A stretch of 64,000 nucleotides of DNA, taken from Bacteroidales bacterium (GTDB lineage Bacteria; Bacteroidota; Bacteroidia; Bacteroidales; JAFGXI01). The DNA is taken from contig JAFGXI010000009.1 in assembly GCA_016936665.1 (NCBI GenBank), positions 86,648-150,647 of the forward strand, read 5' to 3'. This document shows, one piece after another, positions 12,001 to 61,948 of this stretch. The notes below the pieces were generated by a model, which searched no databases, was not told where the DNA came from, and worked only from the letters and a program-made list of their open reading frames with translations. A program made the translations under genes and the position numbers. Positions within the stretch are counted from its first letter, which is position 1; every line of letters starts with the position of its first letter.

Positions 12001-12316
12001 TTGGATTGTTTATATGTCGTTCCTTATCTCTATTGGTTTTCTTTTCGATGTTTTTATTCAATGCATCTTCTAGGTCAACACCGGTCTGATTTGCTAAACA
12101 GATTAGCACCCATAAAACGTCAGCCATTTCGTCTGAAAGACTTAGCGATTGTTCTGTTGATTTAAAAGATTGATCGCCATATTTCCTAGCCATAATACGA
12201 GCTAATTCTCCAACTTCCTCAGTTAAAATAGCCATGTTTGTTAACTCGCTAAAATAGCGAACTCCATATTGTTTAATCCATTGGTCGACTTGCTCTTGTG
12301 CTTGTTTTATAGTCAT
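11990..12316 (-). CDS. mazG: MazG-like nucleotide pyrophosphohydrolase
   Basis: 108 aa with EEVGELARIM and DEMADVLWVLICLAN metal-binding EExxE/D-type helices. Confidence 0.8.
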   Translation of the reverse strand: MTIKQAQEQVDQWIKQYGVRYFSELTNMAILTEEVGELARIMARKYGDQSFKSTEQSLSLSDEMADVLWVLICLANQTGVDLEDALNKNIEKKTNRDKERHINNPKLK

Positions 12317-15450: not shown

Positions 15451-15526
15451 TAATCTGTGTTCTTTTTGCAAAAATAAAGATAGTACGCCTAATAGACTAA
15501 ATTCTATAAAAATAGTTGCATAAAAA

Positions 15527-18500: not shown

Positions 18501-19785
18501 ATGCAAATACGCTTAAGTCGAAAGCCGAAAGCAAATCGTAATATTTTAAATTAAACACGCCATCGTTGCCATTCAAATAAGACGGTACAAAAACAATCTT
18601 AACTTTTTTACTTTTGAAATTAGAAAACCGGTATTCGTCCAATTTTCGAATTATTGGATCGTGCTGAGGGTCGAGCAACTGATGGGTTAAAAACTCTTGT
18701 TCCATATGGTATGGCAAGCCATTGTGAATGGCGTCGAATATACCGTTAATAGGGCCATATATACCGGCAGGAACCATAATAAAAGCAAAAACATTTCGGT
18801 TTAGGTTATCTTCTTTTTCGAGTAGCATTAAAGCATCTAAAAACAAGTCGATTCCTTTATTTTTATACTCGTAGCGACCGCTAGTCACTATTTTCAAATC
18901 GTCGTCTTGTGGTTCTTGACCGGTAACAACTTTTGCCGCTTTATAAAGTATATTTTTAGCCGATTGTTTTCTTTCTTCCCAAGTTTCGTCTTTAGGAATT
19001 AAAAATTCATCGAATCCGTTTGGTGTTACTATATCGACTTTTGTTCCAAGTAAGTTTTCACTTTCTTTTGCAGTGATATCGCTAACCGTAGTATAAACAT
19101 CGGCATGTTGTCCGGATAGTTTTTCGAGCGAAAATTTGGCCGAAATATTAAATTGTTTGGCTATTTCTTTGCCTTGATACTGACTTTGATTGGTATATAG
19201 CGGCCACCCATTTCCTGCTATCGATCGTCCTAATGCAGTTGCATGTGTGGTAAAAGCCGTACTTATATAGGGTGCATATTCTTTTAAAAACAATATTCCT
19301 GCGCCTGTCATCCATTCGTGAAAATGAGCAATAACTTTTGATTTTTTAAGTTGGTAAAATCTAACAAAGTCTTTTATCAACATACCGGCAGAATAGCCAA
19401 ACATTGCAGGTTCTACATAATCCCATCCCCCCGAAAGAGAATCTAACTTATAAGACTCCCAAAAATGAGCAAAGATCTCGTTTTTATAGTTAAAGTAAGG
19501 GGTAAAATCGACAAGTATTACGATTGGTTTTGATGGAATATTCCAAAATCCGGTACGTACTTTAATTTTATTGTCGCCTAAGTTTTTTTTCCACTCGCTA
19601 AATAAGTTTTTATCTTCGATAAACTCATCGTTTTTTTGCTCTCTCCACACATCAGGCCCGATCAGAATAAAGTGATCGTTTAAGCGATCTTTCAAGGATT
19701 TTGCTTTGGTTGCTAATACCGTATGGATACCCCCAACTTTGTTGCAAATCTCCCAACTGGTTTCAAAAATGTAATCTGCTTTCAT
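15571..19785 (-). CDS. Fusion protein: GT3 glycogen synthase (aa 1-~535) plus GT35 alpha-glucan phosphorylase (aa ~575-1404)
   Basis: The N-terminus MKADYIFETSWEICNKVGGIHTVL is the eukaryote/Bacteroides-type glycogen synthase signature. The C-terminal half starts with NLWWSWN, the N-terminal region of alpha-glucan phosphorylases, and contains the PLP-lysine motif EASGTSGMK. It is one uninterrupted 1404-codon frame. Confidence 0.85.
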   Translation of the reverse strand: MKADYIFETSWEICNKVGGIHTVLATKAKSLKDRLNDHFILIGPDVWREQKNDEFIEDKNLFSEWKKNLGDNKIKVRTGFWNIPSKPIVILVDFTPYFNYKNEIFAHFWESYKLDSLSGGWDYVEPAMFGYSAGMLIKDFVRFYQLKKSKVIAHFHEWMTGAGILFLKEYAPYISTAFTTHATALGRSIAGNGWPLYTNQSQYQGKEIAKQFNISAKFSLEKLSGQHADVYTTVSDITAKESENLLGTKVDIVTPNGFDEFLIPKDETWEERKQSAKNILYKAAKVVTGQEPQDDDLKIVTSGRYEYKNKGIDLFLDALMLLEKEDNLNRNVFAFIMVPAGIYGPINGIFDAIHNGLPYHMEQEFLTHQLLDPQHDPIIRKLDEYRFSNFKSKKVKIVFVPSYLNGNDGVFNLKYYDLLSAFDLSVFASYYEPWGYTPLESLAFNVPTVTTSLAGFGKWVQQSHYSETNAVKVINRTDDNDNDIVNAISKYVLNYSQLGQADVKENRINAEKVSQTALWTNLIDYYLKAYDIALDHQSKRFNPDDIYELAEVKVEENIEMNLEPNWRSFEVESNVYEDFSGLFEMADNLWWSWNFHHTDIFKDIDKNLWIEVNYNPKKFLNSLPYSTFEKLAKDKVFVEKYHQLVNTFNAYLDEKKNAKGPQIAYFSMEFGFHDALKIFSGGLGILAGDYLKEASDSNVNMVGVGLLYKYGYFKQAITNNGEQLSKYEAQLLSEMPISKVKNEEGDQVIISVNLPGRELKIKLWKTHVGRIILYLLDTDFEDNLAEDREITHYLYGGNNENRLKQEIVLGIGGITALRAIKIDADLYHLNEGHAAFIGLERINKLMYESYFTYQQAVELVRSTSLFTTHTPVPAGHDVFEENLMRRYLSYYHESYGISWDEFFALGKAEKTDFKFSMSNLATHLSQEVNGVSWLHGEVTKEMFNNLWKGYFKQELPVGYVTNGVHFPTWTSKYWKSLYAKVSNNQLIDHQDHQELWDKIYDIDDAKIWDTRNKHRIKLIEYLKERVRENWIQRYDNPKTMVDIINKLDSNVLTIGFARRFATYKRAALLFSDIERLSKIVNNPKQPVQFVFAGKAHPNDKPGQDLIKQIVLISKQPEFVGKILFVENYDMELARKLVQGVDIWLNTPTRPLEASGTSGMKAVMNGGLHFSVLDGWWMEGYQEKAGWALSEEKSFQDQGMQNQLDSSTIYYLLENEIIPKYYKRNKEDVPVEWVSFIKNSISKVASQFTTKRMMNDYYERFYNKLYKRSTALKDNQFEALKMLVEWKNTIAERFEQIKVLKICSTTNDQKILKAGVDTHIEVVLDLNDVKPEEIGLQVVITYPFIEDNDNVEIVNFNVYKKDESKITFRAKIKPNEVGRINYGIRMFPVCDSLEYQQDSGVLKWL

Positions 19786-22366: not shown

Positions 22367-24322
22367 TTACTTATGGTTATTTCTTAAATCGTTTATAATA
22401 GATTTTATTCTTAAAAGTTCTGCCACACTCCATGCTTGAGAGATCGTTCCTCCATATTGATGTGGAGGATCTCCATCGTATACTTCGGACACTGTACCTA
22501 AACCATGTTCAAGCATATCGGGTTCAAAATTTTTATAGATCTGCTCTACAAAATTGATTGCAGATTCGCCAGAATAAACTTTCAAATAAGCATCGACAAA
22601 TCCTCCTAATAGCCAAGGCCAAACTGTACCTTGGTGGTATGCTCTGTCTCTTTCTTCTTGATTGCCTTTGTATTGGCCTTTGTATTGCTTGTTTCTGGGT
22701 GTTAGTGTTCGCAAGCCTTTAGGCGTGAGTAACTCTGACTTTACTTTATCAACAACACATTTAAAGCGATCTTCCTCTAAAATAGCATATGGCAAGCTAA
22801 CTGCAAAAATCTGATTTGCTCTTTGATTAAAGTTAACATCTTCGAAATTAACAAAGTCGGCCACTCTTCTTTGCATATCGTCCCAAAAAATGGTATTAAA
22901 TGTCGCTTTTGCTTTTGATGCAATGTTTTGAAGCTCTTCGGCTAGTTCTTTTTGCTTATTTAAGACTGCTAACTCAGCTGTGAATAATAACGCGTTATAC
23001 CATAAAGCATTAATTTCCACAGCATAACCGGTTCTGGGCGTAACGGGTTCTCCAAAAACAACGGCATCCATCCATGTTAACCCATGTTTACTATCGCCAC
23101 CGTAGATTAACCCGTTGTCGTGCAATGCAATATTATAGTGTGTTCCTCTTTTAAAGGTGTTAATGATACTTAACATACTATCTGAGAAGAGTTTCCAAAT
23201 GGCTTTTGCATCATTATTTTTAGAGTAATATTGCTGAATACTCCAAAAATACCAAAGCGGGGCATCTATAGAATTATAACTGGCAGCATTATCTGCTCCA
23301 ATGTTTGGAAACAAACCATCTTTAATTTGTGAGCTCATACTTTTAAGCACTTCCAAGCATGTTTTATTATCGCCTATAGCACAAGTTAATCCGGGCAAAG
23401 CAATAAATGTGTCTCTTCCCCATCGGCCAAACCAAGGGAAGCCTGCAATAATCTCGGTATGTTTGTTTTGTACAATAAATTGTTTAGCAGCATGAGTTAA
23501 ACAATTGTCGAGGTCGTTTCTTGGAATTCGTTTTTTAAGTTCAGACTGGTATTTGAGCTTTAGCCCTTTTGTTTTTATTTCTTGTAGCCCGGCGGCTATG
23601 ATAACAGTTTCTCCCTTTTTAATATCGAACTCAAACATTCCCGGCATTAGTAAATCCTCTTGGTATTCGTAACCTCTTGCTTGTTCTTCTTGGTATTCTA
23701 CCTTATAATACCAATTAGGGAAATGTACATACTCTACTTTTTTTGAAGCTTGAATGTACAAACTGTCGTATGCAGGATACAACTTAAATTCGGAACCATT
23801 TTCTCTTGATTTAAAACCTGTATTTACTTCAAAATTAGCATGACTCAATTGATGAAAATTACGAAATGCTAAAAATGGTTTTACTTGTAGCTTTGTAGAG
23901 CTATGTGCTTCTTCCAAAGTATAACAGATTAGTATAGTTGGTTCGTTTTCAATTAATAAATACTCCTTTTTAAGAATTACCCCTCCGACTCTATAAATAG
24001 TGTGAAAATTAGGTTCTGCTTTGAACTCCTTGATGTATTTATGCCCTTTGGGCTCAAATACACCTCCATGATATTTTCTGATACCTAAGTTAAATGCCTT
24101 TCCATTTTGAATGACAGTTTCGTCGACCGATGATAAAAAAACATGTCTGTCTTGATCGATTTGAGGTTGAGGCGCAACTAGTAGACCATGATATTTTCTT
24201 GTGTTGCAACCAATAATAGTGGTGGATGCGTACGAACCAGACCTGTTCGAACGGATAATTTCTTTACTTAAAGAGTACGATAAGTTTATCAATTGACTTT
24301 TGTTAAGGTCAAGAAAGCTCAT
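22367..24322 (-). CDS. Glycogen debranching enzyme (amylo-alpha-1,6-glucosidase family)
   Basis: 651 aa with FPWFGRWGRDTFIALPGL and AYHQGTVWPWLLG motifs. Confidence 0.8.
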   Translation of the reverse strand: MSFLDLNKSQLINLSYSLSKEIIRSNRSGSYASTTIIGCNTRKYHGLLVAPQPQIDQDRHVFLSSVDETVIQNGKAFNLGIRKYHGGVFEPKGHKYIKEFKAEPNFHTIYRVGGVILKKEYLLIENEPTILICYTLEEAHSSTKLQVKPFLAFRNFHQLSHANFEVNTGFKSRENGSEFKLYPAYDSLYIQASKKVEYVHFPNWYYKVEYQEEQARGYEYQEDLLMPGMFEFDIKKGETVIIAAGLQEIKTKGLKLKYQSELKKRIPRNDLDNCLTHAAKQFIVQNKHTEIIAGFPWFGRWGRDTFIALPGLTCAIGDNKTCLEVLKSMSSQIKDGLFPNIGADNAASYNSIDAPLWYFWSIQQYYSKNNDAKAIWKLFSDSMLSIINTFKRGTHYNIALHDNGLIYGGDSKHGLTWMDAVVFGEPVTPRTGYAVEINALWYNALLFTAELAVLNKQKELAEELQNIASKAKATFNTIFWDDMQRRVADFVNFEDVNFNQRANQIFAVSLPYAILEEDRFKCVVDKVKSELLTPKGLRTLTPRNKQYKGQYKGNQEERDRAYHQGTVWPWLLGGFVDAYLKVYSGESAINFVEQIYKNFEPDMLEHGLGTVSEVYDGDPPHQYGGTISQAWSVAELLRIKSIINDLRNNHK

Positions 24323-24433
24323 AATTAGATTTTTTTTGCAATGATAGACTTATTTTTCAGATGAAGAGTTAAGTTTACATTAAGTTCTAAGTTACGCTTA
24401 TACGCTTAGAAATTTGAAAAGTTGTTTTTTATC

Positions 24434-25276
24434 TTAGAAATAGTATCCTAACTTTTTCATTACAGACACATTCTTTTCGTAAAATTCTAAAGCCAGCGTT
24501 TTTGGAATATAATTTTGCCATGCCCCGCTTTTCCCAGATCTGAAAAACTTTGATGATTTAATAGGTTTTTCTCTAAAACCATTTTGGTCTTCTTGAGTTT
24601 TTAGCTGATTAAAACTAGAATGTTTTATTGATGATAATAATTTTTCTTCTTCCAAGGAAATATCACAGAATTCTACTATTGACTTGAACATTTCTTCGGG
24701 TCGATCTAACAGATCTTCGTATCGAATTAGCAAGCGTGGAATTGGAGCATTTTCCCAAGATAAATAATGATTAGACCAAGTATCTAATACCTGTCTTAAT
24801 TGATTGGTTAATTTTTTTTTATTACTTGCCAGTGTCTTTTTATGGTTATTTAAGTTTTGAATACTTTTTTCTATTGAAATATTTGAATGAAAAGCAAAAG
24901 ATACTGCTACATCTAAAGGATGCCTTACAATATGAATTACCCCTTTTGAGATTTCGGTAGGAAATATTGGAAGATTATTATCATTTAAGCTATATGCGTC
25001 ATGCGTTTTAATAAACTTTATACGATTTTCTTCCTCACTCATTTTTATATAAACATGAGGTCTTAAATTATCAATTTCCTCAGTTTTTAAATCTGAAGAC
25101 AAAACAGCAGAATAACGATCGAAAACTTTTCTTGAACTTGAAATTGTACTGCTTTTAATTTTGTTTATATCAACTGGTTGCAAACTTTTTGATAAGTAGT
25201 TAGCCAGAAAAATTCTCACCCAAGTATTACCCGATTTTGGATAAGAAACCAACCATATTAGATTTTTACTAAGCAT
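24434..25276 (-). CDS. PAPS-dependent sulfotransferase
   Basis: 5'-PSB motif YPKSGNTW (25220..25240), a 3'-PB-like IVRHPLDVAVSF, and a C-terminal FFRSGKSGAWQNY. The start ATG shares one nucleotide with the TGA of the upstream kinase gene (TGATG). Confidence 0.8.
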   Translation of the reverse strand: MLSKNLIWLVSYPKSGNTWVRIFLANYLSKSLQPVDINKIKSSTISSSRKVFDRYSAVLSSDLKTEEIDNLRPHVYIKMSEEENRIKFIKTHDAYSLNDNNLPIFPTEISKGVIHIVRHPLDVAVSFAFHSNISIEKSIQNLNNHKKTLASNKKKLTNQLRQVLDTWSNHYLSWENAPIPRLLIRYEDLLDRPEEMFKSIVEFCDISLEEEKLLSSIKHSSFNQLKTQEDQNGFREKPIKSSKFFRSGKSGAWQNYIPKTLALEFYEKNVSVMKKLGYYF

Positions 25277-26172
25277 CAGTCTAAAACTACACTTTCTGCA
25301 TAGAAATTAAAAGAAGACAACAACTTGATATTCGAAGACCGCTCTAATGTTATTAATTTTATTTGTTGTGCTAAGTGCTGTAAAACTTTAAAAACGATTT
25401 CTGTCTTACCAATAGCTATAGGGAATACAGGTCTGTATATTTGAGATTGTAATGCTTTTAGTTTATCGAAGCCTTGTAATTCGGAGTTTGAGAAATGATT
25501 TGAATTTTTACTACTTAAAACTATTATTTTTTTAACAGGTATCGCATAATTATAAAAATGATCAATCTGTTGCAAACGAAATTTAGATATTCCCGGCCTA
25601 ACAGAATCTTCATTACTTATATCAATTCCATATTCTTCTACAACATCTTCCCATATTTTTGATGATGGATATGAAGGGTGGACATTTACTTTCCCTTCTT
25701 TTACAAACAAAGCAGACACATCGTCTGATAACATCTTATATCCTAATTCGACGAAATGTTGTAATAAAGTAGTTTTACCCGCACCAGAAATACCAGAAAT
25801 TAAAACAGCCTCACCTTTATACTCGAATGCAGATGCATGAAAAGGAACAATTTCTTTTTGCAATAAGAGAGCAGCCATTGCTGAACCCAACAAAAATAAT
25901 TCTATCTCTCTATTTTTTGCATCTTTACATACGTCAATAATTATTGTTGATGCATTTTCTATAAGGTAGTTCCCAACATTTTCTACTTTAAGTAGAAACT
26001 GGTGATCGTTGCTTTCAAAGTTGATTCCTTTATAACCAATATTTGCAAGAGTCTTAGGGACGCTATTTAGTACCACATCAACATCGAAAACTCCCTCATC
26101 AGGGCAAGATATTCCTTGAAGAGGGAGTTCTGATCGGATAATTAATCCGTATACTTTATAATAATTTTGCAT
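25276..26172 (-). CDS. HPr-kinase-like P-loop kinase (RiPP/lasso-associated type)
   Basis: 298 aa. The N-terminus YYKVYGLIIRSELPL, the P-loop GISGAGKTT (25768..25794) and LSDD all resemble the HprK C-terminal-domain-like kinases found in lasso clusters, as I recall the family. It starts 6 nt after the PorP/SprF stop. Confidence 0.7.
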   Translation of the reverse strand: MQNYYKVYGLIIRSELPLQGISCPDEGVFDVDVVLNSVPKTLANIGYKGINFESNDHQFLLKVENVGNYLIENASTIIIDVCKDAKNREIELFLLGSAMAALLLQKEIVPFHASAFEYKGEAVLISGISGAGKTTLLQHFVELGYKMLSDDVSALFVKEGKVNVHPSYPSSKIWEDVVEEYGIDISNEDSVRPGISKFRLQQIDHFYNYAIPVKKIIVLSSKNSNHFSNSELQGFDKLKALQSQIYRPVFPIAIGKTEIVFKVLQHLAQQIKLITLERSSNIKLLSSFNFYAESVVLD

Positions 26173-26178
26173 TGCGTC

Positions 26179-27102
26179 TTACCATTTGTACGCACTCTTA
26201 TTAGTGTTTCCAAACTGATAAATAAATATTAACTCGTGTGAACCCTGACTTACATTACCGATATCGGAAAGTGTTATGTCGTAGGCATAACCAAATTTAA
26301 TTTTATCTTTTTGTACACCAACAGAAATGATAATGTCATTCGGGTCGAAAGCAAAATCTGAACGATAACCTAGTCCTAACCAAACAAAGTCTTTATAAGT
26401 TGTTTTTACGTTTAAATCCCACTGACCTTTGTTAGCTTCAATATATTTAAGTAATAAAGAAGGTTCTAATTTAAAATCTGATCCTAACTCAAAAATATAA
26501 CCTCCATGCAAATAATAATGACGGACTTGTCTATTATCAAACATATCGTTCATTAAGCTAACTCTTCTTCCAAAAAGTTGAAAAGAAGAAATACCAGCAT
26601 AATAATTTTTTGCATAGAAATAAATACCAAAGTTAGCATCGGGGACAATAAGCTTTTCGGAACCATTTAGCAATACTTGGTCGTTTGCATCTTCAACATT
26701 TTCAAGCTGACCTCTATCTAAATAAAACTGATATAAAGAGCCCGACAAACCAAAGCCGATTTTCATTTCATCGTTTAATTTAAGGTGATAAGCATAACTC
26801 AAATTCAAACCCGATTTGCTGATTGAGCCTGTTGAATAGTTGAAAATTTTTGCACCAACACCTCCTAAATCTTCACTAATTTTCATGTGAAAAGTTAAAA
26901 ACTGAGAAGATGGAGCGTTATCAATTCCTGTCCACAAACGCTTATATCCAAGAAAGATAGGCATAGATTCGTCGGATCCAACATAACCTGGATTTACTAA
27001 ATATTTGTTTTCAACAGTTTGCGAAAATGAACCCATTTGTTGCGCTCTTATTGAACTTAGGGCTACCGTTAAAACTATGATGATAAGAACTAATTTTTTC
27101 AT
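26179..27102 (-). CDS. PorP/SprF-family T9SS outer-membrane protein
   Basis: 307 aa. Signal peptide followed by AQQMGSFSQTVENKYLVNPGYVG, the family N-terminal motif, with a beta-barrel-like alternating pattern. It lies directly downstream of a type-B CTD cargo gene, which is the usual pairing. Confidence 0.8.
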   Translation of the reverse strand: MKKLVLIIIVLTVALSSIRAQQMGSFSQTVENKYLVNPGYVGSDESMPIFLGYKRLWTGIDNAPSSQFLTFHMKISEDLGGVGAKIFNYSTGSISKSGLNLSYAYHLKLNDEMKIGFGLSGSLYQFYLDRGQLENVEDANDQVLLNGSEKLIVPDANFGIYFYAKNYYAGISSFQLFGRRVSLMNDMFDNRQVRHYYLHGGYIFELGSDFKLEPSLLLKYIEANKGQWDLNVKTTYKDFVWLGLGYRSDFAFDPNDIIISVGVQKDKIKFGYAYDITLSDIGNVSQGSHELIFIYQFGNTNKSAYKW

Positions 27103-27154
27103 ATTATAATGTTTTTAGTTTTGTTATTTTCAGTAACAAAACTTATTCATAGTA

Positions 27155-30100
27155 TTATTTTAATAAAGTTATTGAGCCAGACTGAGCATTATTGCCATCT
27201 TTCAAATCTATCACGTAATAGTAAACTGCAGCAGGCAACTCTTTTCCATTGCTAGTACCATCCCATACTTCGGCATAGCCTATCGATTCAAAAACTAAAT
27301 TACCCCACTCGTTGAAAATTTTAATAGTACAGTCAGGAAATTTATCGATGTTTTCGATAGTCCAATAATCATTTACACCATCGGCATTAGGCGTAAAGAC
27401 ATCCATAGGGGTAATAATCTCTTTATTGGCCTCAAGTGTATAACTTGCTGTTGCACTACAGTTATTATAGTCGATTACAGTAAGGTTATAAACTCCTGAG
27501 TTAATACTCATCAAATCTTGTGTTAAACCGTTTGTTCCCCAGTTAAACGAGTAAGGTACTGTTCCGCCTTCCATCATTATGCTAATAGAACCATCATAAG
27601 CATCTGTTTTAGATTCGTTGGTAACAACGCCTGAAATGATAATTGAGTCTGGTTGAGATAATATTACACTATCAATATAAGTTCCACATTGATCCATAAC
27701 GGAATATTTATAAATTCCTATTGGTAAACTATCTATATATAGATCTGAATGCGAGAAGTTATTCCAAGAGAAAGTATAAGGCTCAATACCTTGGGTAATT
27801 GTAATTGAAATGGTTCCATTGGAATCGTTATAACAAAGAGGTTCTGTGTAAACCGCTTCCACCATTAATGTAGGTAAATTAGAAACATATACAGAATCAA
27901 CCACTGTGTCTTGACACATATCTACCACACTCACAAAATGCATTCCTACACTAAGATCATTCACATTCATTGCGTTATTGCCATTACTCCAAGCATATGT
28001 GTATGGCATTAAACCTCCGTTAACATCGACTTGTGTTTGACCATTGGAGCCTGATGCACATAGCAATGTGATACTATGGTCTTGAAGAGTAGCTTGTAAG
28101 ATAGCAGTACTTATAATTTCAACAGAGTCAATCATTAGCATATTACAAGCATCTGTAATTGTAACATAATGCATACCCGACCATAGAGAATCCACATAAT
28201 TTGTGTCTAACATCGAACTTGTTCCCCAGTTATAATGAACCGGAGCAACTCCGTTAGCAACAACCACATCAATAAAACCTAAACTATCTCCGGAACATTG
28301 CTCTGAGGTATTAGTAAATGAATATGTTAAAACCGGTAAATGATTTATCTCTACAGAATCAATTGTGCTTCCACATACATCGCTAACTGTAACGTACTGC
28401 GTACCAACAGGCAAGTCAGAAGCAATATTGCTTGTACTTGCACTATTCGACCAAGCAAAAGTATAGGGCTGAACGCCTCCGGTCGCAATTAACGAAGCTT
28501 GTCCATCGGCAGAACCAATACAAGATGCATCGGACATATGTTCGGCAAATGCTATTAATTTGGGGAAGTAATTAAACAAAATTGAATCTACAATTTGTGT
28601 TCCGCATTGGTCTGTTACAGTTACGTATTCTGTTCCTACAGATAAATCGTGAGCTATAGAGCCAGTACTTGAGGATGAGCTCCAAGTAAAAACGTAAGGC
28701 ATTACGCCACCATTTGCAACAACAGTTGCAGAGCCATTCGAGCTTGTATCGCACAACAAACTGCCGATATGATTAGTAAAGCCTGCAACAAGTAGCGCAT
28801 TTTCTCCAATTACTATTGAATCGGTAACAGACCCACATGCATCGGTAACTGTAATATAGTATGTATTTGCTGGTAAATTGCTAACCGTATCGTTTGTCGA
28901 AATTGGAGCTCCAGCACTTGGTAGAGTATCCCAAACATATGAATACATTCCAGAACCATTAGTTACAACAACAACAGCTTCTCCATTGCTCGAATTACAA
29001 GTTTCATAACTTGAGAATAATTGAACATCCATAGATGGAGTAACGCCAATTTCAACAGAATCAATTTTAGTTCCACAAGCATCAGTGACTGTTACATACT
29101 GCATTCCCTCTTGTAGTAGATACGCAATTGTTGTATCAAGCTCACCGGAAGACCACGCAATTGAATAAGGTTGAACACCTCCAACAACAAAAACAGATGC
29201 AGAGCCATCTGCATTTCCGGAGCATGTAACATCAGTATTTTCAGAAATACTAGCATACATAACAGGTAGATTCACAACATTTACAGAATCTACTATACTG
29301 ATACAACCATCAGTAACAGTAATGTGATGTAAGCCTATTGCTAAATCTGAAGCGATATAATCGGTACTTGTAGAATTTTCCCATTGATATGTTATTGTAC
29401 TATATCCATTTTGAGTATTCATCCAAGCTTCGCCATCCATACCCCCTGGGCAAGCTATAATAGTATTATGAGTACTTATTGTAGATGTTAAGGTTGGAAT
29501 ATGATCTACAACAATAGTATCTAGAACTTGAGTACCACATGCATCAGTAACAGTAACAACGTGAGTCCCGACTAATAAATCGTATGCTATAGAATCCACA
29601 AAAGATCCTACCGAAGCAGACCATTGATACACGTATGGGCGTTGACCTAAACTTGCTAACACAGTAGCACTTGGCAAAGTATCATAAAAACAGTTTAAAG
29701 TCACTCGATCTGTTAAAGAACTTACAAGTAGAGGATCATTGTCTAAAATTACTGAATCAACATAAACACAACCTTTTTCTGAAGTTGCAGTGAGAGTATA
29801 TTGGCCTACACCTAAGTTTGATATAGTTTGGCTTGTTTCAAGAGTATTCCATAACCATTCGAAGCTGTATCGAACCGTATCAGCAGTAGCACTCGTATCT
29901 GAAAACACATAGGCTGTTACAGAGCCATCGTTACTGCTTGGACAAGATGTCAAATCTGTAACAAATCGAATATCAAAATCATTACACAATTTATGTTTAG
30001 CAATAAAAGCATCTGAAAAGGATGATGTAGTAATACCTAATGTTGTGTCATTACCATAATCAGAATCAAAAGTTAATGGATCCGAATAGTACGTACCTGC

Positions 30101-31429
30101 TATAAATAAATTAAAATTATTGTCCACATATGCCGTTACACTTTGATCATCTGCAGTCCCATAAACTTGATCTGCATATATTGGGTCTGCATTATTATCT
30201 GTAAAAATGTAAAGTACATCTGTGGTTGCAGGAGCAGTTGAGCTCAATGTTTCCGATCCTATATTGATGTCTCCACTAAAGCCTCCGGCAAATAAAATAT
30301 TATTACCATGATATGTAGTAAAGTTAATTTGATTAGTTCCGTCGCCTTCGAACACATGAGAGTTTACATACTCGCCATTAAAATCGTATTTTAAAATAAA
30401 AATATCACTATTTGCTCCAACAATAGGTGTTGATACCGGTGTGGAGGATTCAAAAGTCAAGTTTGTACTATTAGTATATCCTCCTGCAAAATACCCATCC
30501 GGAGTAACAACACTGCTAGAAATATAGTCTAAGCTTGTTCCGTGGATACTTCTAGACCAAATTTCATTAAAGTTTAAATCTGTTTTGTACAAGAAAGCAT
30601 CCTGGTCGCCCGAGGCAGAGGCAGTTAACAAACTTGTTCCTAGTTGAACTTGGTCGGTGAACTTTCCTGCCATATAGTAACTATTGTTGAAGTACTTAAT
30701 ACTAACAATGTTTCCTGCTCCCGTCGTATTAGGGAAAGAGAGATGCTCGTTATCGATATAGTTTCCATCTAAATCCATACTGGCAATAAATACACCCTTC
30801 CCTGTCCCCGAAGTAGCGTTGATAGTCGCTGTTGCTGATCCGATTGGACCAAAATTACAATCTGTAGCAAACCAACCGCTATAAATAATTCTATTTAAAG
30901 AGGGATCTATAGTTATTGCTCCAGAAACACTTCCTTTTGTCCCCCAAGCGGCATTTTGTGCCCAAACTAAATCTCCATCGGAAGTATATTTAGCAACAAA
31001 CACATCGAACAAGCCCGTATTTGTAAGCGTAACAGTATTGGCAGGAGAAGGAAAAGAACAATCGCTCGATTTAAAATCGCCAAGGATATAAATATTGTTA
31101 TTGTCGTCGAATGTAATTGCTTTTGGCACATCTTTTCCTGCACTTTGGATAAAACGCATCCACAATGGATTTCCATCAGGATCGAATTTTGCTAAAAACA
31201 AATCGTCATCTCCGGCAGAAGCAACCACTTGGGTTTCGTCGGTAATTAGAATAATTTCACTTGTGAAAAACCCGAAAGTATAAATATTGTTATCATTGTC
31301 AATAGTAGATTCTATTATCCCAATGTTACTATTTGCACCTCTAATGGCTCTTGCCCATGTCCACTCTTGCGCATAAGAGTTTTGCAAAAAGCTGAGCGTA
31401 ATACTCAAAATAATAAGAATGTATTTCAT
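27155..31429 (-). CDS. T9SS type-B cargo: giant adhesin-like protein (beta-propeller-type repeats, ~11 SprB/HYR-like repeats, gliding-motility-associated C-terminal domain)
   Basis: 1424 aa with a signal peptide. The N-terminal third has SBBP-like repeats (DGNPLWMRF, DGDLVWAQN). It ends in VFTPNADGVNDYWTIENIDKFP...VYYYVIDL, a CHU_C / type-B sorting domain at roughly 27158..27427. Confidence 0.85.
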   Translation of the reverse strand: MKYILIILSITLSFLQNSYAQEWTWARAIRGANSNIGIIESTIDNDNNIYTFGFFTSEIILITDETQVVASAGDDDLFLAKFDPDGNPLWMRFIQSAGKDVPKAITFDDNNNIYILGDFKSSDCSFPSPANTVTLTNTGLFDVFVAKYTSDGDLVWAQNAAWGTKGSVSGAITIDPSLNRIIYSGWFATDCNFGPIGSATATINATSGTGKGVFIASMDLDGNYIDNEHLSFPNTTGAGNIVSIKYFNNSYYMAGKFTDQVQLGTSLLTASASGDQDAFLYKTDLNFNEIWSRSIHGTSLDYISSSVVTPDGYFAGGYTNSTNLTFESSTPVSTPIVGANSDIFILKYDFNGEYVNSHVFEGDGTNQINFTTYHGNNILFAGGFSGDINIGSETLSSTAPATTDVLYIFTDNNADPIYADQVYGTADDQSVTAYVDNNFNLFIAGTYYSDPLTFDSDYGNDTTLGITTSSFSDAFIAKHKLCNDFDIRFVTDLTSCPSSNDGSVTAYVFSDTSATADTVRYSFEWLWNTLETSQTISNLGVGQYTLTATSEKGCVYVDSVILDNDPLLVSSLTDRVTLNCFYDTLPSATVLASLGQRPYVYQWSASVGSFVDSIAYDLLVGTHVVTVTDACGTQVLDTIVVDHIPTLTSTISTHNTIIACPGGMDGEAWMNTQNGYSTITYQWENSTSTDYIASDLAIGLHHITVTDGCISIVDSVNVVNLPVMYASISENTDVTCSGNADGSASVFVVGGVQPYSIAWSSGELDTTIAYLLQEGMQYVTVTDACGTKIDSVEIGVTPSMDVQLFSSYETCNSSNGEAVVVVTNGSGMYSYVWDTLPSAGAPISTNDTVSNLPANTYYITVTDACGSVTDSIVIGENALLVAGFTNHIGSLLCDTSSNGSATVVANGGVMPYVFTWSSSSSTGSIAHDLSVGTEYVTVTDQCGTQIVDSILFNYFPKLIAFAEHMSDASCIGSADGQASLIATGGVQPYTFAWSNSASTSNIASDLPVGTQYVTVSDVCGSTIDSVEINHLPVLTYSFTNTSEQCSGDSLGFIDVVVANGVAPVHYNWGTSSMLDTNYVDSLWSGMHYVTITDACNMLMIDSVEIISTAILQATLQDHSITLLCASGSNGQTQVDVNGGLMPYTYAWSNGNNAMNVNDLSVGMHFVSVVDMCQDTVVDSVYVSNLPTLMVEAVYTEPLCYNDSNGTISITITQGIEPYTFSWNNFSHSDLYIDSLPIGIYKYSVMDQCGTYIDSVILSQPDSIIISGVVTNESKTDAYDGSISIMMEGGTVPYSFNWGTNGLTQDLMSINSGVYNLTVIDYNNCSATASYTLEANKEIITPMDVFTPNADGVNDYWTIENIDKFPDCTIKIFNEWGNLVFESIGYAEVWDGTSNGKELPAAVYYYVIDLKDGNNAQSGSITLLK
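27455..29986 (-). repeat. About 11 tandem ~75-aa coding repeats (SprB-like: C..S.DG.....v.GG..PY.f.W)
   Basis: Recurring motifs RPYVYQWS, ITYQWENS, QPYSIAWS, MYSYVWDT, MPYVFTWS, QPYTFAWS, MPYTYAWS, EPYTFSWN and VPYSFNWG. Each is followed by ...YxVTVTDxCG. Confidence 0.8.
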
Positions 31430-31448
31430 ATTGTAATTTTTTTAGTTT

Positions 31449-31616
31449 TTAAGAACCTGAATAATCCTCAGTTGTGTTATTAACATCCCCAGATAACGTC
31501 TTGGAAATCGATAGTATATTAAGCTCCGGCGTTTTCCAATTTAATTTGTTTATAAGCTCTTCATCAACTTCTTGAATTTGCTTTATGTCTTTGTTTTCTG
31601 AACCTTTTAAATTCAT
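31449..31616 (-). CDS. Candidate lasso-type RiPP precursor peptide (55 aa)
   Basis: Manual translation gives MNLKGSENKDIKQIQEVDEELINKLNWKTPELNILSISKTLSGDVNNTTEDYSGS, from ATG at 31616 to TAA at 31451..31449. The leader has W(-15)xxP(-12)xL(-10)...T(-2). The core is SGDVNNTTEDYSGS, with Glu9 as the only acidic residue at a ring-competent position. A -7 box sits at 31650..31657. The ORF is divergent from the cyclase gene. Confidence 0.6.
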   Translation of the reverse strand: MNLKGSENKDIKQIQEVDEELINKLNWKTPELNILSISKTLSGDVNNTTEDYSGS

Positions 31617-31649
31617 ATATATTAGACTTTAGTGTTTGTACAAAAGGAA

Positions 31650-31657
31650 CAAATTTA
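31650..31657 (-). promoter_or_regulatory. -7 promoter box (TAAATTTG on the minus strand) for the precursor operon
   Basis: TAnnTTTG match about 33 nt upstream of the precursor ATG. Confidence 0.4.
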
Positions 31658-31669
31658 TATAATTTTAGT

Positions 31670-31677
31670 TATTTTTG
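31670..31677 (+). promoter_or_regulatory. -7 promoter box (TATTTTTG) for the cyclase gene
   Basis: TAnnTTTG match 27 nt upstream of the ATG at 31705. It lies back-to-back with the precursor promoter in an 88-bp divergent region. Confidence 0.4.
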
Positions 31678-31704
31678 TTAATAATAGATAGTAATTTATT
31701 CTGA

Positions 31705-33348
31705 ATGGTTGCCTTAATATGGTCTAAAATTGATTTAGATGCCGAAATATTTGATTTAATACATACTAATCATCAATTAAAAATTTATTTATTGTGGGTT
31801 AAAGAGTCAATTTCAGAAAAAATTGAAATAAAAGACACAAGCCTCCAATATGAATATAAAACGCATATATCTTCTCCATCAGGCATACACTCTATAACTG
31901 CTGACTTACTTAAAAATAGTTGCCAAATTTATAGAGGGGCAAATAGTCAAATACCAATTTACTATTATAAAAACGAGAACATCGCTTTAGTATCTAACAG
32001 CCTGAATGTTTTTTCGAAACTACCTGTTAATCTTACAATTAACTATAAATGGATTGCTTGTGGTCTTTCCGGAATTGCACCCGAAGCCCATGAGACTTAT
32101 TACGAATCGGTAAAAAAACTCCGTCCTGGTTCAGGTTTGCAATTGAGCAACTGGGAATTTTGCATTTCTGATTTAAAAAAAGATACTGATTATCAATTCG
32201 ATAATTTAGAACATGCGCTTTCTCAAACCGTTTTAAAATATATTGGGATCAATAATGGCTGTGAATTAAGTGGTGGGTTGGACTCTTCGGCAATTGCGGG
32301 TTGGTTATCGCACCATGTAAGTGGCAAACAAATTGTTTTAAATGCCTTTAATCAAGGTTTAAAACCGGGAATTCAAAAGCAGTTTTTTCCGTATGTTGAT
32401 GAAAGAAATTTTGCAAAGCTTGTTGAGCTATTCCACAAAAACCTTAAGATTAATATTGTTGATAGCTTCGAGAACAATTTGATTGATGATATCAAACTTG
32501 CAGGCTCCATACTAGCCTCACCTGCATTGAACAGCTTAAGTTATTTTAATATACAACTGTTTCGCGATGCTCGACGATTAAACGTATCTACATTATTTTC
32601 AGGTTTTGGAGGCGACGAAGCGATAAGTGCAAGAACATATCAATACCCTCAGTTTCTAATTTCTCAGCACCAATGGAAAGAATTACTCCAACTTTCGAAA
32701 AAAAATCCAATTTATATTTCGAAATCCATCATTAAATATTTTGTAAAAAAACCTAAATCGATCCCTGCTTGGAAATTTGAAAAATGGGATAATACATTAA
32801 TCACAAACGAACTAAAAAACAAAACCAAGTTCGAACCGTATTTTTTTAACAATTCATCAAAACTTGCTGAAAACTTTGAACAATTCTTATTAAATAAAAT
32901 CAATCATCCTGCCGTAAAATTGAGAGTAGAAGAAAACAGCAGTGTTGCGCGTCATTTTGGAATCGACTATGCTTATCCGCTTTTAGACGAGCAATTAATC
33001 TATTATTACTTAAATATTCCTGATTATAAAAAATTTAATATCAACCCCGATCGACACTTATTTCGACAAGCCATAAGCAAAGTGGTGCCCCCCGAAATTA
33101 AAAACAGAACAGACAAAACCTCTGCTACAATTCCGAATGTGTATTATCGTCTTTTAAATGAAAAAGAAAATATTATCGAAATTATTCACCAAGCAAAACA
33201 AACGGAAATGGCACAAATAATAAATCTCGAAAAAATGCTACTTCTGTTGAAGAGAGCAGAACTAAAAAATAAAGGCATCCATAATGGAAGATTAGATTTA
33301 AAAAATCTGTTTTTCGCATTAGGACTAATTTTATTCGAAAAAAATTAG
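31705..33348 (+). CDS. Asparagine-synthetase-like protein, lasso-peptide cyclase type (no glutaminase Cys)
   Basis: 547 aa. A PP-loop SGGLDSS sits at aa 189-195 (32269..32289). The N-terminus MVALIW lacks the Cys2 of true AsnB. A later FSGFGGDE motif is present. Size and context fit McjC-like cyclases. Confidence 0.7.
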   Translation: MVALIWSKIDLDAEIFDLIHTNHQLKIYLLWVKESISEKIEIKDTSLQYEYKTHISSPSGIHSITADLLKNSCQIYRGANSQIPIYYYKNENIALVSNSLNVFSKLPVNLTINYKWIACGLSGIAPEAHETYYESVKKLRPGSGLQLSNWEFCISDLKKDTDYQFDNLEHALSQTVLKYIGINNGCELSGGLDSSAIAGWLSHHVSGKQIVLNAFNQGLKPGIQKQFFPYVDERNFAKLVELFHKNLKINIVDSFENNLIDDIKLAGSILASPALNSLSYFNIQLFRDARRLNVSTLFSGFGGDEAISARTYQYPQFLISQHQWKELLQLSKKNPIYISKSIIKYFVKKPKSIPAWKFEKWDNTLITNELKNKTKFEPYFFNNSSKLAENFEQFLLNKINHPAVKLRVEENSSVARHFGIDYAYPLLDEQLIYYYLNIPDYKKFNINPDRHLFRQAISKVVPPEIKNRTDKTSATIPNVYYRLLNEKENIIEIIHQAKQTEMAQIINLEKMLLLLKRAELKNKGIHNGRLDLKNLFFALGLILFEKN

Positions 33349-36129: not shown

Positions 36130-39100
36130 TTATTTTCTTATAACTAACTTAACGCTGTATATATTGTCATTTTCAGATAATTTAACATTGTACATTCCTG
36201 CAACAATCGAATAATCGGTTATACTGAACTCTTCTCCTTCGAAATTAACTCTCACTGCATCAGAATAAATTGCCTTTCCGGTATTATCCGTAATATTCAA
36301 AATATATTTCCCTTCAGGCACATTTGCCTTAATTACTATCTCGTTTGATCCTGTTTGGAATGCAACAATACCAAACATTTTTTCCGACTGACAATCTACA
36401 GAAGTCATTGGGTGATACTCTGTTTTCCCATCGAAATCTACTTGCAAAAGTCTATAATATGATTTTCTACCATCGTTTGTATAATCTTCGTAAGTATATT
36501 TTGTTTCTACGTTACTATTTCCTGTACCTTCTATCTGAGCAATAAATTCATATTGATTTAAATCGTAACTTCTTTCAAGAACAAAATAATTGTTGTTGGT
36601 TTCTGTAGATGTAATCCAATCCACTTTTACAAAGTCATCATTGCAAGTAGCATTGAAACTTAAGAGTTCTACTGGCAAAGGCCATCCTGTATCTTTATGG
36701 ATATAGAAGGTTGAAAAACTTGTAACCTCGACTTCTGCATAATAACCCGAACCAATTGGACTAACAGAAAATGTAGCAGCTGGCATCAACATACAATTCG
36801 ACCATGTTCCGGAATCATCACACTTTGTAACTGTTAAATCGTTAACCGATAATATTGTCGGATCTGCCGCTTGCAGTGCAACGAATTCGGCATCGGTAAA
36901 ATAAATTCTTACTGTTGCTGCCCCTTGAATAGAAGGTGTAATTCTAACCACTCGAGGCAAATAGGCTTGAGAATTATAATATTGAACAGCTCCGTAGATT
37001 GTAGCTTCCGCTTCGGTATCGAATAGACTAGTTCCTCCGGCAGCATCAAAAACAGAGGCTATTATTTCGTTGCTATTCGACTCGTTTACAATATAAACCC
37101 AATTATCCGGACTTTCTATGTTACATTCTCCAGATACGCCTGTGCTACTAACAATAGATGCAGGAATAGAAGGTCCACTCACCGTTACAGTCGTTGTAGT
37201 TGTACAACCAAAGGCATCTTCGATGGTTACATCGTAGTCACCTGCAGATAAATCCATAATTGTAGAAGTATTTTCGCCAGAATCCCAATTATATGTAAAA
37301 ATACCTGCTTGTGGAATACCTAAACCATCGACGGCTAATGCAGTAGCTTGTCCATCGTTGTTACCATAACAAGACACAGCTAAACTGTTATCATCAGGGT
37401 GTAAATCACTAATCCCTGCATATACAACTGCTCTTGACGTTGGGCATGCACTTGCTCCACCGGCAGATATTGAAACATCATTAATATACCAACCTGTACT
37501 GCCTACAGAAGCATCGGATGTAAAAACAAATGCGATTTCTAATGTGTTTGCTGTTGAAACATCTATTGGCCCTGTATGGGCAGAATACGCAGATGAAGAC
37601 CCGTAATACAGAGGCATACTAGATGAAGAACTACAAGCATTCCATAAGGGTTCATTATATTGTCCATCGTTACCGGAATAACTACCCGATGCCGGAGTAA
37701 ATTGTACCCACGCACCACCGTCTAATCGGTAAGCAACATAGCCATGGTCGCAACACGATTCTGTAACAAATTTATGAGTATAAGAAAGGGTTACCGATCC
37801 AGCCCAAGTAGAAACATCAATTATTGGAGAGTTAATTATTTGAGAAGAATTGCTGGTTGGATCTACAGCAAACATAGTTCCATTTCCGCCATCGGTCGCC
37901 CATACCCAATTATATGAGCCAATACATGGCGCTGTGGTAGACCATCCTTCTAAATCCGAATCGAAAGTAAAGTTAACATCAGAAAATGAAGGAACTACTT
38001 CTGCTACATAAAAAGAATCTGGAGCCCATAAATTTGAAATATCATAAGAGCTTCCTGTATTCACCAAGGTTCCACCTGTTGCAGCATCGTACCACTCTAA
38101 TGTTCCAACACCATTAGCCAACAAAGTAACAGGGTCGCCGGGAACACAAGCATGATCGTCGTTTACATTTGGTGTACCAATAATGTGTATATGAACTTGC
38201 GCAGTATCTGAGTTACCAAAACCCAAACCATCGTCAATAATAACAGTATAAGTGGTGCTAGCACCCGGTGATACATCTGCTGCCGGATCTAAATCGGTCG
38301 GGCCATAAGACCACGTAACAGTTTGTCCGTCGGTAGGACAAGAAATTTCTACATTATCTAAGCCCCAATGGTCAAATACAAAATCTGTTACTTGTTCTTG
38401 ATGAAATCTAAATTTGGTAGCTGAAGAAGCGGCTAGATCAGGTACATCGAAACAATAGTTGCCCCAACTAACAAAATCGGACGATATGTTTTCAGCAACA
38501 CTGGTTCCTGAACCTACGAATGAGTTTGAAGGGTATTGCGAACCATCCGGGCTAAAATAAGTAATGTCTGTCCATGTTGCGCCATCATCTGTCGACCACT
38601 GTAAAGAGACGCCTTCATCTTCTTCGTCAGGTCCTTCGCAAGGTGTCGCATTGCCTTGAACAGCCATCACAAAATCGAAACAAATCTGGCATTCTTCCGA
38701 AATAGAATAAGGTTGAGTTATTAAATCGCGAGGGAAAGTGGCGGCATCGCCAATCCATAAATAGGACGTTCCATCTTCGGAAGCAATACAAGGGTTATCG
38801 AATGCGGGATTAGCATTAGATTCCCATCCAACTCCCATTGATCCATCATCAAAATTATTATCCATTAAATAACTGCAACTACCAACTGCAGCAATATCTA
38901 CAGATGTTCCTGCACAGATATTAAGTGTATCGTAAATGCCATCGGCTGTAGCCTCTATATGGCAAGGCTGACCAACAACAACGGTCACTGTATCGCATGC
39001 AGAAAAACAAGAGCCATTATCTACTGCAGCATAAAAAGTAGTTGTAATTAGTGGAGAAACATCGATATTTGTTCCTGTACCAAGCAAAGCCCCTTGGCAA

Positions 39101-61291: not shown

Positions 61292-61948
61292 ATGACTTTT
61301 GATCAGATACAACAACATATTGAAACCTACCGAGCCGAGGGGAAAAAGCTATTTGTAACTTCTTCTTTTCAAACGCATAGTATTGTTTTATTGCACATCG
61401 TTAGCAGGATCGATAATCGCATTCCGATTTTCTTTATCAACACCGGTTTTTTATTTCCTGAAACAGTCATTTTTAAAGACCAAATTGCTAAAGCTTTTAA
61501 TTTAAATATAATAGATGCAAAGTCGTCGGTGCCTAAGAGCCAGCAAAAAGATAATTTTGGACAACTTTTGTTTGCTTCTGACCCCGATTATTGTTGTTAT
61601 TTGAATAAAATCCAACCATTAGACCCAATTTTAGCTGAGTACGATGTTTGGATAAATGGCGTTCGGGCAGATCAAACAGAAGTTCGGAAAGCGATGAACA
61701 TTGAAGAACTATCAAAATTTGGCACTGTTCGATTTCATCCTATGCTCGATTGGACTAAGCAAGATATTTATGCTTACATTCGCGAACACAAGTTACCTAA
61801 ACATCCGTTAGACGAAAAAGGATATTTGAGTATTGGATGCGAACCATGCACTCGTAAAATGGTTTTAGGCGACGAAAGAGCCTCACGATGGTTTGGGTTA
61901 AACAAAACAGAATGTGGTCTGAACACAGAACTTGTCCAAAAAAAATAA
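61292..61948 (+). CDS. cysH: Phosphoadenosine phosphosulfate (PAPS/APS) reductase
   Basis: SSFQTHSIVLLH, the GCEPCTR motif and a C-terminal KTECGLN. I moved the start to the ATG at 61292. A TATTTTTG box immediately upstream implies a very short leader. Confidence 0.85.
   Translation: MTFDQIQQHIETYRAEGKKLFVTSSFQTHSIVLLHIVSRIDNRIPIFFINTGFLFPETVIFKDQIAKAFNLNIIDAKSSVPKSQQKDNFGQLLFASDPDYCCYLNKIQPLDPILAEYDVWINGVRADQTEVRKAMNIEELSKFGTVRFHPMLDWTKQDIYAYIREHKLPKHPLDEKGYLSIGCEPCTRKMVLGDERASRWFGLNKTECGLNTELVQKK

Follow-up and report, generated by a model that had tools for sequence, protein, structure and literature searches.

Lasso-family kinase and sulfotransferase genes share a predicted operon with the gene of a type IX secretion adhesin in a Bacteroidales genome

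Introduction

Lasso kinases phosphorylate the C-terminal serine of the linear precursor peptide (PMC8498205), and both a sulfotransferase and a nucleotidyltransferase have already been reported in some kinase-bearing lasso clusters, the role of the sulfotransferase being left open (PMC4289311; PMC8498205). A locus of this kind lies at positions 24434-33348 of a 64,000-nucleotide stretch of DNA from a Bacteroidales bacterium (assembly GCA_016936665.1, contig JAFGXI010000009.1, positions 86,648 to 150,647), referred to hereafter as the window. A first-pass annotation, made from the sequence alone, had described it as a lasso-type locus with an HPr-kinase-like kinase and a sulfotransferase and had predicted a phosphorylated and/or sulfated peptide. 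What was observed there proved largely correct but incomplete, and the interpretation placed on it is partly supported. We report that homologs of a lasso precursor and cyclase are indeed present, together with the kinase and sulfotransferase genes and the genes of a type IX secretion system (T9SS) adhesin, and that the leader peptidase B2 and the B1 protein, which carries the recognition element for RiPPs (peptides made by the ribosome and modified after translation), are absent from the window. The reading we favour, with a probability of roughly one half, is that the window holds an incomplete locus, a 'satellite' of the lasso family that is associated with kinases, in which B1 and B2 would be supplied in trans and a phosphorylated, possibly sulfated peptide would be functionally tied to the adhesin.

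Results

Relationship of the window genes to canonical lasso loci

The island comprises six genes. Five lie on the minus strand, in the order precursor, adhesin, PorP/SprF, kinase and sulfotransferase, and a divergent cyclase homolog lies on the plus strand (Table 1). All six open reading frames (ORFs) are intact, and every gene named in the first-pass annotation was found with the motifs quoted for it. Three enzyme genes had been said to surround the precursor; the cyclase is the only one next to it, across a divergent gap of 88 bp, whereas the kinase and sulfotransferase genes belong to the operon of the precursor at a distance of 5.3 kb downstream, past the adhesin and PorP/SprF genes, which the first-pass annotation had passed over. 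In the NCBI annotation of the source metagenome-assembled genome (MAG; Bacteroidales), on a contig of 219 kb, precursor and kinase are each a 'hypothetical protein' and the cyclase an 'asparagine synthase'.

The island was compared with a set of 164 loci, made up of 80 genome and 80 metagenome loci around cyclase relatives and a few exact look-ups, which were annotated with hidden Markov models (HMMs) seeded from the window and from one of these loci, L004. Homologs of the precursor, cyclase, kinase and sulfotransferase were each found in about 50-90 loci, loci that also carry PqqD (B1) and a transglutaminase-like B2. About 25 Bacteroidales MAG loci show a canonical order of kinase, sulfotransferase, PqqD, transglutaminase-like B2, precursor and SprB-family protein, with the cyclase and an NTP_transf_5 gene divergent from the kinase-to-adhesin strand. 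The same set of kinase, sulfotransferase, PqqD, B2 and cyclase occurs without the adhesin in MAGs labelled Erythrobacter, Pelobacter, Desulfobacteraceae, Acidobacteria, Verrucomicrobiota and others. The PqqD of L004 scored 99.9 bits against NCBIfam NF033536 (cut-off 80) and its B2 71.1 bits (cut-off 33), while the best match of its cyclase was the lasso cyclase model, at 394 bits. Because B1 and B2 of L004 pass the NCBIfam lasso cut-offs, the canonical loci can be taken as genuine lasso loci and the window genes as homologs of their parts. Judged by sequence, the precursor, cyclase, kinase and sulfotransferase of the window very probably belong to the lasso family.

The precursor matched an HMM built from 48 related small ORFs at E = 7e-15. 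Its leader carries W-K-T-P-E-L and ends in K-T-L, and cleavage is predicted at the junction between ...SKTL and the core, SGDVNNTTEDYSGS, in which Ser1, the invariant Gly2, Glu9 and a C-terminal Ser are found; Thr occupies leader position -2. The 48 related precursors have in common a W-x-x-P leader motif, Thr at -2, an invariant Gly2 and a Glu at core positions 8-10, usually 9. The window peptide was aligned with 47 relatives, and core statistics were taken on 46 cores. The layout of a lasso precursor (leader, penultimate Thr, small residue 1, Asp or Glu at 7-9) is present in the window peptide and equally in the 46 related cores.

As first noted, the cyclase homolog lacks the glutaminase Cys (N-terminus MVALIW) and carries the PP-loop SGGLDSS, at residue 189; SGFGGDE at 299 and DKTSATIP at 470 were also found. 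Pfam gave an Asn_synthase match alone, with no GATase domain. Its synthetase domain is intact. The protein keeps each of the 25 columns that do not vary among 28 homologs, and its N-terminal domain falls about 70-100 residues short of that in the canonical relatives. Neighbour-joining analysis of 86 cyclases put the window protein in a nested position among those from canonical lasso loci. It has 88 detectable relatives, the nearest at 34% identity, and is the most divergent of its own clade, with YRGAN where relatives carry RDxLG. Profile-HMM assignment, proposed earlier as a check on the three enzymes, bore out the sulfotransferase and the HprK-like family of the kinase; for the cyclase the lasso model was the best match but the score fell below its cut-off. 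Searches of PDB sequences for a solved lasso cyclase or lasso kinase returned AsnB-type enzymes and HPr kinases only.

Kinase and sulfotransferase as a coupled pair

The kinase has the size and the GISGAGKTT motif previously given for it, the motif starting at residue 127. Taken alone it matched weakly to Pfam Hpr_kinase_C (E = 1e-3), to HprK_rel_A (E = 9e-7) and, also weakly, to ScmC. A profile of 25 members of the kinase family matched HPr kinase structures in PDB (E = 9e-9) over the H-G...G-x-S-G-x-G-K-S...D-D core, and 18 of the 25 members matched Hpr_kinase_C. All seven columns invariant in the 25 members (H112, G127, S129, G132, K133, W174 and K197) are kept in the window kinase. The C-terminal Ser is retained in 37 of the 46 related cores, as expected from the suggestion that it is phosphorylated and consistent with published lasso kinases (PMC8498205). 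It is also found in the kinase-less loci L007, L016, L048, L058 and L069.

The sulfotransferase matched Pfam Sulfotransfer_1 at E = 4.8e-29 across positions 4-254 of the 255 in the model. The motifs YPKSGNTW (residue 12) and RSGKSGAW (246) are present as originally reported, and KTH (90) and RHPLDVAVS (118) were found in addition; by analogy with SULT structures we take these to represent PAPS (3'-phosphoadenosine 5'-phosphosulfate) binding, through a 5'-phosphosulfate-binding loop and a 3'-phosphate-binding segment, the catalytic His and GxxGxW. Relatives in PDB are Teg12, StaL and SULT1 enzymes, and the protein is of the cytosolic Sulfotransfer_1 type. The translational coupling to the kinase gene was likewise seen, as a one-base TGATG stop/start overlap (gacTGATGctt).

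This pairing is not confined to the window. A kinase gene was present in 90 of the 164 loci and a sulfotransferase gene in 66; both occurred together in 64, so that the prediction survives the refutation test set beforehand, that of co-occurrence in other genomes. Nearly every sulfotransferase locus (64 of 66) thus has the kinase, and in 60 of the 64 loci with both genes the two are immediate neighbours on one strand, the kinase first, most often overlapping by 1-8 nt. The combination had been thought unusual for a lasso locus; it is the norm of the family across several phyla and has been in the literature since 2014-2016 (PMC4289311; PMC8498205).

That the sulfotransferase is nearly confined to kinase-bearing loci suggests that its site of action may be the same C-terminal region, or that it may work once phosphorylation has taken place, as with the nucleotidyltransferase of pseudomycoidin. 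Action on a phosphorylated C-terminus, if it occurs, would be new chemistry. We also considered whether kinase and sulfotransferase might act on the adhesin or on a polysaccharide, and rejected this candidate, the same pair being found in adhesin-less lasso loci of Proteobacteria, Acidobacteria and Desulfobacterota. A cysH gene at 61292..61948 had been cited as a sign of PAPS metabolism. Its identity holds (NF002537, 222.8 bits, cut-off 154), but the gene is no evidence of PAPS synthesis, because the reductase consumes PAPS or adenosine 5'-phosphosulfate.

Five loci from Desulfobacterota, Acidobacteria and Pelobacter MAGs (L031, L037, L043, L050 and L074) encode an extra protein of about 550 aa, matched by the sulfotransferase HMM, immediately upstream of the cyclase, besides the sulfotransferase of about 290 aa that is coupled to the kinase. 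One of them, L037, holds two lasso loci inside 12 kb.

Absence of B1 and B2 and a clade of short cyclases

Searching the window with hmmsearch --max over ORFs of at least 25 aa returned nothing better than E = 0.7 for PqqD/B1, B2 or NTP_transf_5. The PqqD/B1 HMM, which finds PqqD in 52 other loci, reached E = 2 at best, and a Pfam scan of about 34 larger window ORFs, most of those of B1 or B2 size included, gave neither protein. Because B1 and B2 are absent from it, the window cannot make a lasso peptide alone, and by itself it does not qualify as a lasso locus, a point that the first-pass annotation had missed. In a Logan assembly of the same organism (L089, 13061-14878), a gene some 6 kb upstream of the window start encodes a 605-aa Asn synthase with intact GATase domains; it sits in a glycerophosphotransferase/cytidylyltransferase, teichoic-acid-like polysaccharide cluster and is probably a regular amidotransferase with no connection to the lasso locus.

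In the neighbour-joining tree the window cyclase forms a clade with those of L003, L001, L086, L088, L007 and L016. PqqD, B2 and NTP_transf_5 are absent from all seven loci, and for this reason the missing B1 and B2 are not an accident of assembly. The cyclases of the clade are 547-590 aa long, as against about 620-690 aa in the canonical loci, and have lost the Pfam GATase signal mostly or wholly, while every invariant cyclase residue is kept. Kept as well, in all seven loci, are the W..P leader motif, Thr -2, Gly 2 and Glu 8-9. L001 has the exact six-gene order of the window, although its cyclase is only 32% and its kinase 40% identical to the window protein. L007 consists of cyclase, precursor, adhesin and PorP only, with housekeeping genes on both sides. 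A second clade without B1 and B2 (L048, L058, L069 and L042) has full-length cyclases. A single metagenome scan for closer relatives of the window clade yielded L090 only, which is L001 again.

Six further Bacteroidales MAG loci (L009, L018, L033, L006, L039 and L044) carry the cyclase and NTP_transf_5 only, with no precursor, kinase, sulfotransferase or B gene within up to 10 kb. Together with the kinase-less loci that keep the C-terminal Ser, they indicate that dispersed, trans-acting genes seem common in this group.

Three distinct loci with a short cyclase, a precursor and a giant adhesin, all without B1 and B2 (L086, L088 and L001), come from assembly GCA_002754915.1 (contigs PDWI01...). 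The contig numbering suggests a metagenome-like assembly, and the three may come from different genomes.

Adhesin gene downstream of the precursor

The adhesin has a putative signal peptide, an SBBP beta-propeller region taking up about 480 aa at the N-terminus, SprB repeats and, as its sorting domain, CHU_C of type B (CHU_C, E = 3.7e-27; TIGR04131, 70.5 bits, cut-off 35); NCBIfam matched both the T9SS type B sorting domain and the SBBP propeller. Its N-terminus, MKYILIILSITLSFLQNSYA, was judged signal-peptide-like by eye. The PorP/SprF protein scored 251 bits against TIGR03519 (cut-off 90.55), and its gene has the same position in L001, L007 and L016. PorP/SprF proteins are the usual cognate partners of cargo with a type B C-terminal domain.

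A gene for SBBP/SprB-family cargo was found directly 3' of the precursor, 10-70 bp after the stop, in 34 of 55 precursor loci (2263-6597 in L004, 752-5329 in L008, and about 30 more), and a PorP/SprF gene comes after the adhesin where the sorting domain is of type B. The N-terminal 480 aa of the window adhesin are 25-44% identical to the precursor-following proteins of 29 other loci. Homologs of this domain carry PF06739 (SBBP propeller), which is common in type IX cargo; SprB-repeat proteins encoded elsewhere in these loci are without it. In other lasso clusters this place is taken by an exporter, and the conserved placement of the adhesin there is a sign that the peptide and the surface protein are functionally linked. 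No mention of a link between lasso peptides and T9SS or SprB was found in the searchable literature. Ligation of the peptide to the adhesin by the cyclase was considered and rejected, the adhesin having a signal peptide and being exported and the ATP-dependent enzyme being cytoplasmic.

Four other large surface or secreted proteins are encoded in the window, at 12313-15471 (CUB and Por_Secre_tail), 36130-41055 (Ig_7 and reelin-like), 41682-47597 (GEVED, BNR-associated and T9SS-associated GBD) and 58295-59965 (trypsin-like protease with Por_Secre_tail). None of them has the precursor-linked SBBP/SprB N-terminal domain.

Genomic setting

The island is flanked on one side by glycogen-metabolism genes and on the other by a type III glutamine synthetase gene. 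The adjacent glycogen genes form a compact cluster, in which a 1404-aa ORF (15571-19785) combining Pfam Glycogen_syn, Phosphorylase and DUF3417, that is, a glycogen synthase-like and a glycogen phosphorylase-like part, adjoins GH57, GT4/GT5 and GDE genes. The G + C fraction is 0.31 at 24001-26000, over the kinase and sulfotransferase genes, as against about 0.36 for the window, which may hint at separate acquisition of the pair.

Between the divergent precursor and cyclase genes, TAAATTTG (31657-31650, minus strand) fits what we take to be the Bacteroidetes -7 promoter consensus, TAnnTTTG, and is offered as a lead to the promoter only. Its distance upstream of the start codon of the precursor is 34 nt, and a -33 TTTG could not be clearly made out. 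A scan of the window for sigma-70 promoters and for terminators gave counts no better than those in shuffled sequences.

Table 1. Positions of the island features in the window
Feature	Position	Strand	Basis and remarks
PAPS-type sulfotransferase, 280 aa	24434..25276	-	Pfam Sulfotransfer_1
HprK-like P-loop kinase, 298 aa	25276..26172	-	Walker A; 6 bp after PorP/SprF
PorP/SprF outer-membrane protein, 307 aa	26179..27102	-	Pfam PorP_SprF, E = 1e-68; 52 bp after adhesin
Secreted SBBP/SprB adhesin, 1424 aa	27155..31429	-	Pfam SprB (6 stretches), CHU_C; starts 19 bp after precursor stop
Precursor, 55 aa	31449..31616	-	ORF; ends ...TTEDYSGS; HMM of related precursors
Divergent intergenic region	31617..31704	.	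88 bp, between precursor operon and cyclase
Asn-synthetase-like lasso cyclase homolog, 547 aa	31705..33348	+	Pfam Asn_synthase; best NCBIfam match NF033535

Discussion

In the pathway that we propose for the satellite locus, the operon would express the 55-aa precursor, co-transcribed with the SBBP/SprB adhesin and PorP/SprF. The HprK-like kinase would phosphorylate the linear precursor at the hydroxyl of its C-terminal Ser, and the translationally coupled sulfotransferase would sulfate a hydroxyl of the same C-terminal region, not specifically that of a Tyr. A B1/B2 pair encoded elsewhere in the genome would cut the leader after Thr(-2)-Leu(-1), and the divergent Asn-synthetase homolog would close an isopeptide ring between Ser1 and Glu9 using ATP. 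The invariant or catalytic residues of cyclase, kinase and sulfotransferase are all intact in the window, which we count as function maintained. We assume that B1 and B2 act in trans from another locus, as the simplest reading of the missing genes.

Several results weigh against this proposal. The precursor scored 21.6 bits against NF033524, the NCBIfam model of the paeninodin family, below the cut-off of 27; of ten related precursors, eight gave no match to this model and two gave 13-14 bits. The cyclase reached only 95 bits against NF033535, for which the cut-off is 525. The core is short: of its 14 residues, 5 are left once 9 have gone into the ring. No exporter is encoded at the locus, nor do the gene calls over 10 kb of sequence upstream of the window include B1, B2 or an NTP_transf_5 homolog. 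Loss of B1 and B2 together with shortening of the cyclase, across a clade as deep as about 30% identity, could mean that the mechanism has changed. Finally, no characterised sulfated lasso peptide was found in the searchable literature, in keeping with the first-pass remark that such peptides are essentially uncharacterised.

A pathway that has dispensed with B1 and B2 would fit the clade in several respects. The shortened cyclase would read the leader itself, and the leader would be cut off by some housekeeping protease of other origin, or the enzyme would form an amide or isopeptide link of a different kind, giving a lasso-like or branched peptide from cyclase, precursor and adhesin, with kinase and sulfotransferase optional. 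Absence of PqqD, B2 and NTP_transf_5 from seven of seven loci, with cyclases of 547-590 aa throughout, the minimal cyclase/precursor/SprB/PorP unit of L007, the intact catalytic residues of a clade that is old (about 30% identity), and the second such clade of L048, L058, L069 and L042 all speak for it. Yet the W..P..L motif, the Thr(-2) spacing and the Gly2/Glu9 geometry are as in loci that do carry B1 and B2, which is what continued recognition by B1 and B2 predicts. We know of no lasso cyclase that works without B proteins, and all examples lie on MAG or metagenome contigs, so B1 and B2 may lie elsewhere. We therefore regard such a route as rather unlikely. The gaps could also mark a relic, in which no ring is formed and the linear precursor is at most modified, or the small ORF serves only the expression of the adhesin operon. 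Essential genes are missing, the cyclase is the most divergent of its clade (YRGAN for RDxLG, 95 bits, no GATase match) and the kinase/sulfotransferase segment has a deviating G + C fraction (0.31 against about 0.36). Decay is nonetheless difficult to reconcile with six intact ORFs, with invariant residues kept in three enzymes, with a precursor that retains every ring-forming position, or with a six-gene order shared with L001 despite identities of 32% for the cyclase and 40% for the kinase, and we think it improbable.

The place of sulfation is a separate matter. The first-pass annotation saw in E-D-Y the acidic setting of tyrosine sulfation, and the sulfotransferase might O-sulfate Tyr11, as TPST and RaxST do, besides phosphorylation of Ser14. 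A Tyr is present somewhere in most related cores, and the nearest solved relatives of the enzyme include phenol/aryl sulfotransferases, among them the glycopeptide phenol sulfotransferases Teg12 and StaL. The Tyr itself is not a conserved position, however: the residue after E-D is Y in the window but T in L001 and L003 and S in L004, and six loci with the sulfotransferase (L034, L035, L038, L051, L067 and L078) have no Tyr in the core. Nor is the strongest match of the enzyme to the TPST-type family: it is to Sulfotransfer_1, and the match to Sulfotransfer_3 is weak and partial. Tyr11 as the acceptor is accordingly very doubtful. Because the C-terminal Ser is conserved and the Tyr of E-D-Y is not, we consider the predicted phosphorylation of this Ser well supported and sulfation of the Tyr not.

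Lasso clusters with a kinase and a sulfotransferase have been noticed before and are widespread, and their chemistry is unsolved. The window adds a new variant, marked by the absence of B1 and B2, a shortened cyclase and an operon shared with a type IX secretion adhesin. The kinase-sulfotransferase pair emerges as a tightly coupled module of several phyla, whose target is pointed to the C-terminal Ser region and not to Tyr. In about 34 Bacteroidales loci the precursor has the adhesin gene as its immediate downstream neighbour, which suggests that the peptide acts with the adhesin and not as an exported antibiotic. A deep clade of cyclases and precursors without B1 and B2 offers a natural test of whether the leader-processing proteins act in trans or are dispensable. 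One might go further and see cyclase, precursor and SBBP/SprB adhesin as one functional unit, whose phosphorylated or sulfated lasso or lasso-like peptide, made in the window clade by a remodelled cyclase without dedicated B1 and B2, would be a ligand, modulator or partner of a mobile adhesin of the cell surface. We think this improbable too; if true, lasso peptides would gain a role at the cell surface or in gliding in place of one as antibiotics, and a minimal biosynthetic route.

Comparison with known systems

The nearest systems are the canonical Bacteroidales loci (for example L004, L008, L010, L011 and L029), none of which is characterised. They share with the window homologous precursor, cyclase, kinase, sulfotransferase and adhesin genes, an adhesin gene directly 3' of the precursor and a divergent cyclase. 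The window and its clade differ in having lost PqqD, B2 and NTP_transf_5 and in a cyclase about 70-100 aa shorter, and in the window the kinase and sulfotransferase genes are shifted to the end of the operon, behind PorP/SprF.

Among described lasso systems, those of the paeninodin type (PadeK of Paenibacillus dendritiformis and proteobacterial clusters with a kinase, for instance that of Sphingobium yanoikuyae) also have an HprK-like kinase, an Asn-synthetase-type cyclase, a core ending in Ser and a leader with a W/Y..P motif and Thr at -2 (PMC8498205; PMC4289311). The window lacks their B1, B2 and ABC exporter, its precursor falls below the family cut-off, its cyclase is shortened in the N-terminal domain, and its operon holds a T9SS adhesin and PorP/SprF; PadeK and SyanK were set beside the window kinase by description. 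Pseudomycoidin, from Bacillus pseudomycoides, follows the same logic as that proposed here: a kinase phosphorylates the Ser at the C-terminus, and a second, kinase-dependent enzyme, a nucleotidyltransferase, further decorates the phospho-Ser of the lasso peptide (PMC8498205). In the window the second enzyme would instead be a PAPS-type sulfotransferase, and no nucleotidyltransferase is present.

RaxX/RaxST and TPST resemble the window in that a ribosomal peptide is encoded near a sulfotransferase gene and a Tyr stands beside acidic residues in the core; they differ in that the window enzyme best fits Sulfotransfer_1 and the Tyr is not conserved among relatives with the enzyme. The adhesin, for its part, recalls the SprB/SprF module of Flavobacterium johnsoniae in its SprB repeats, CHU_C type B domain and neighbouring PorP/SprF gene. 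It is much shorter than F. johnsoniae SprB, begins with an SBBP propeller and shares its operon with a RiPP precursor.

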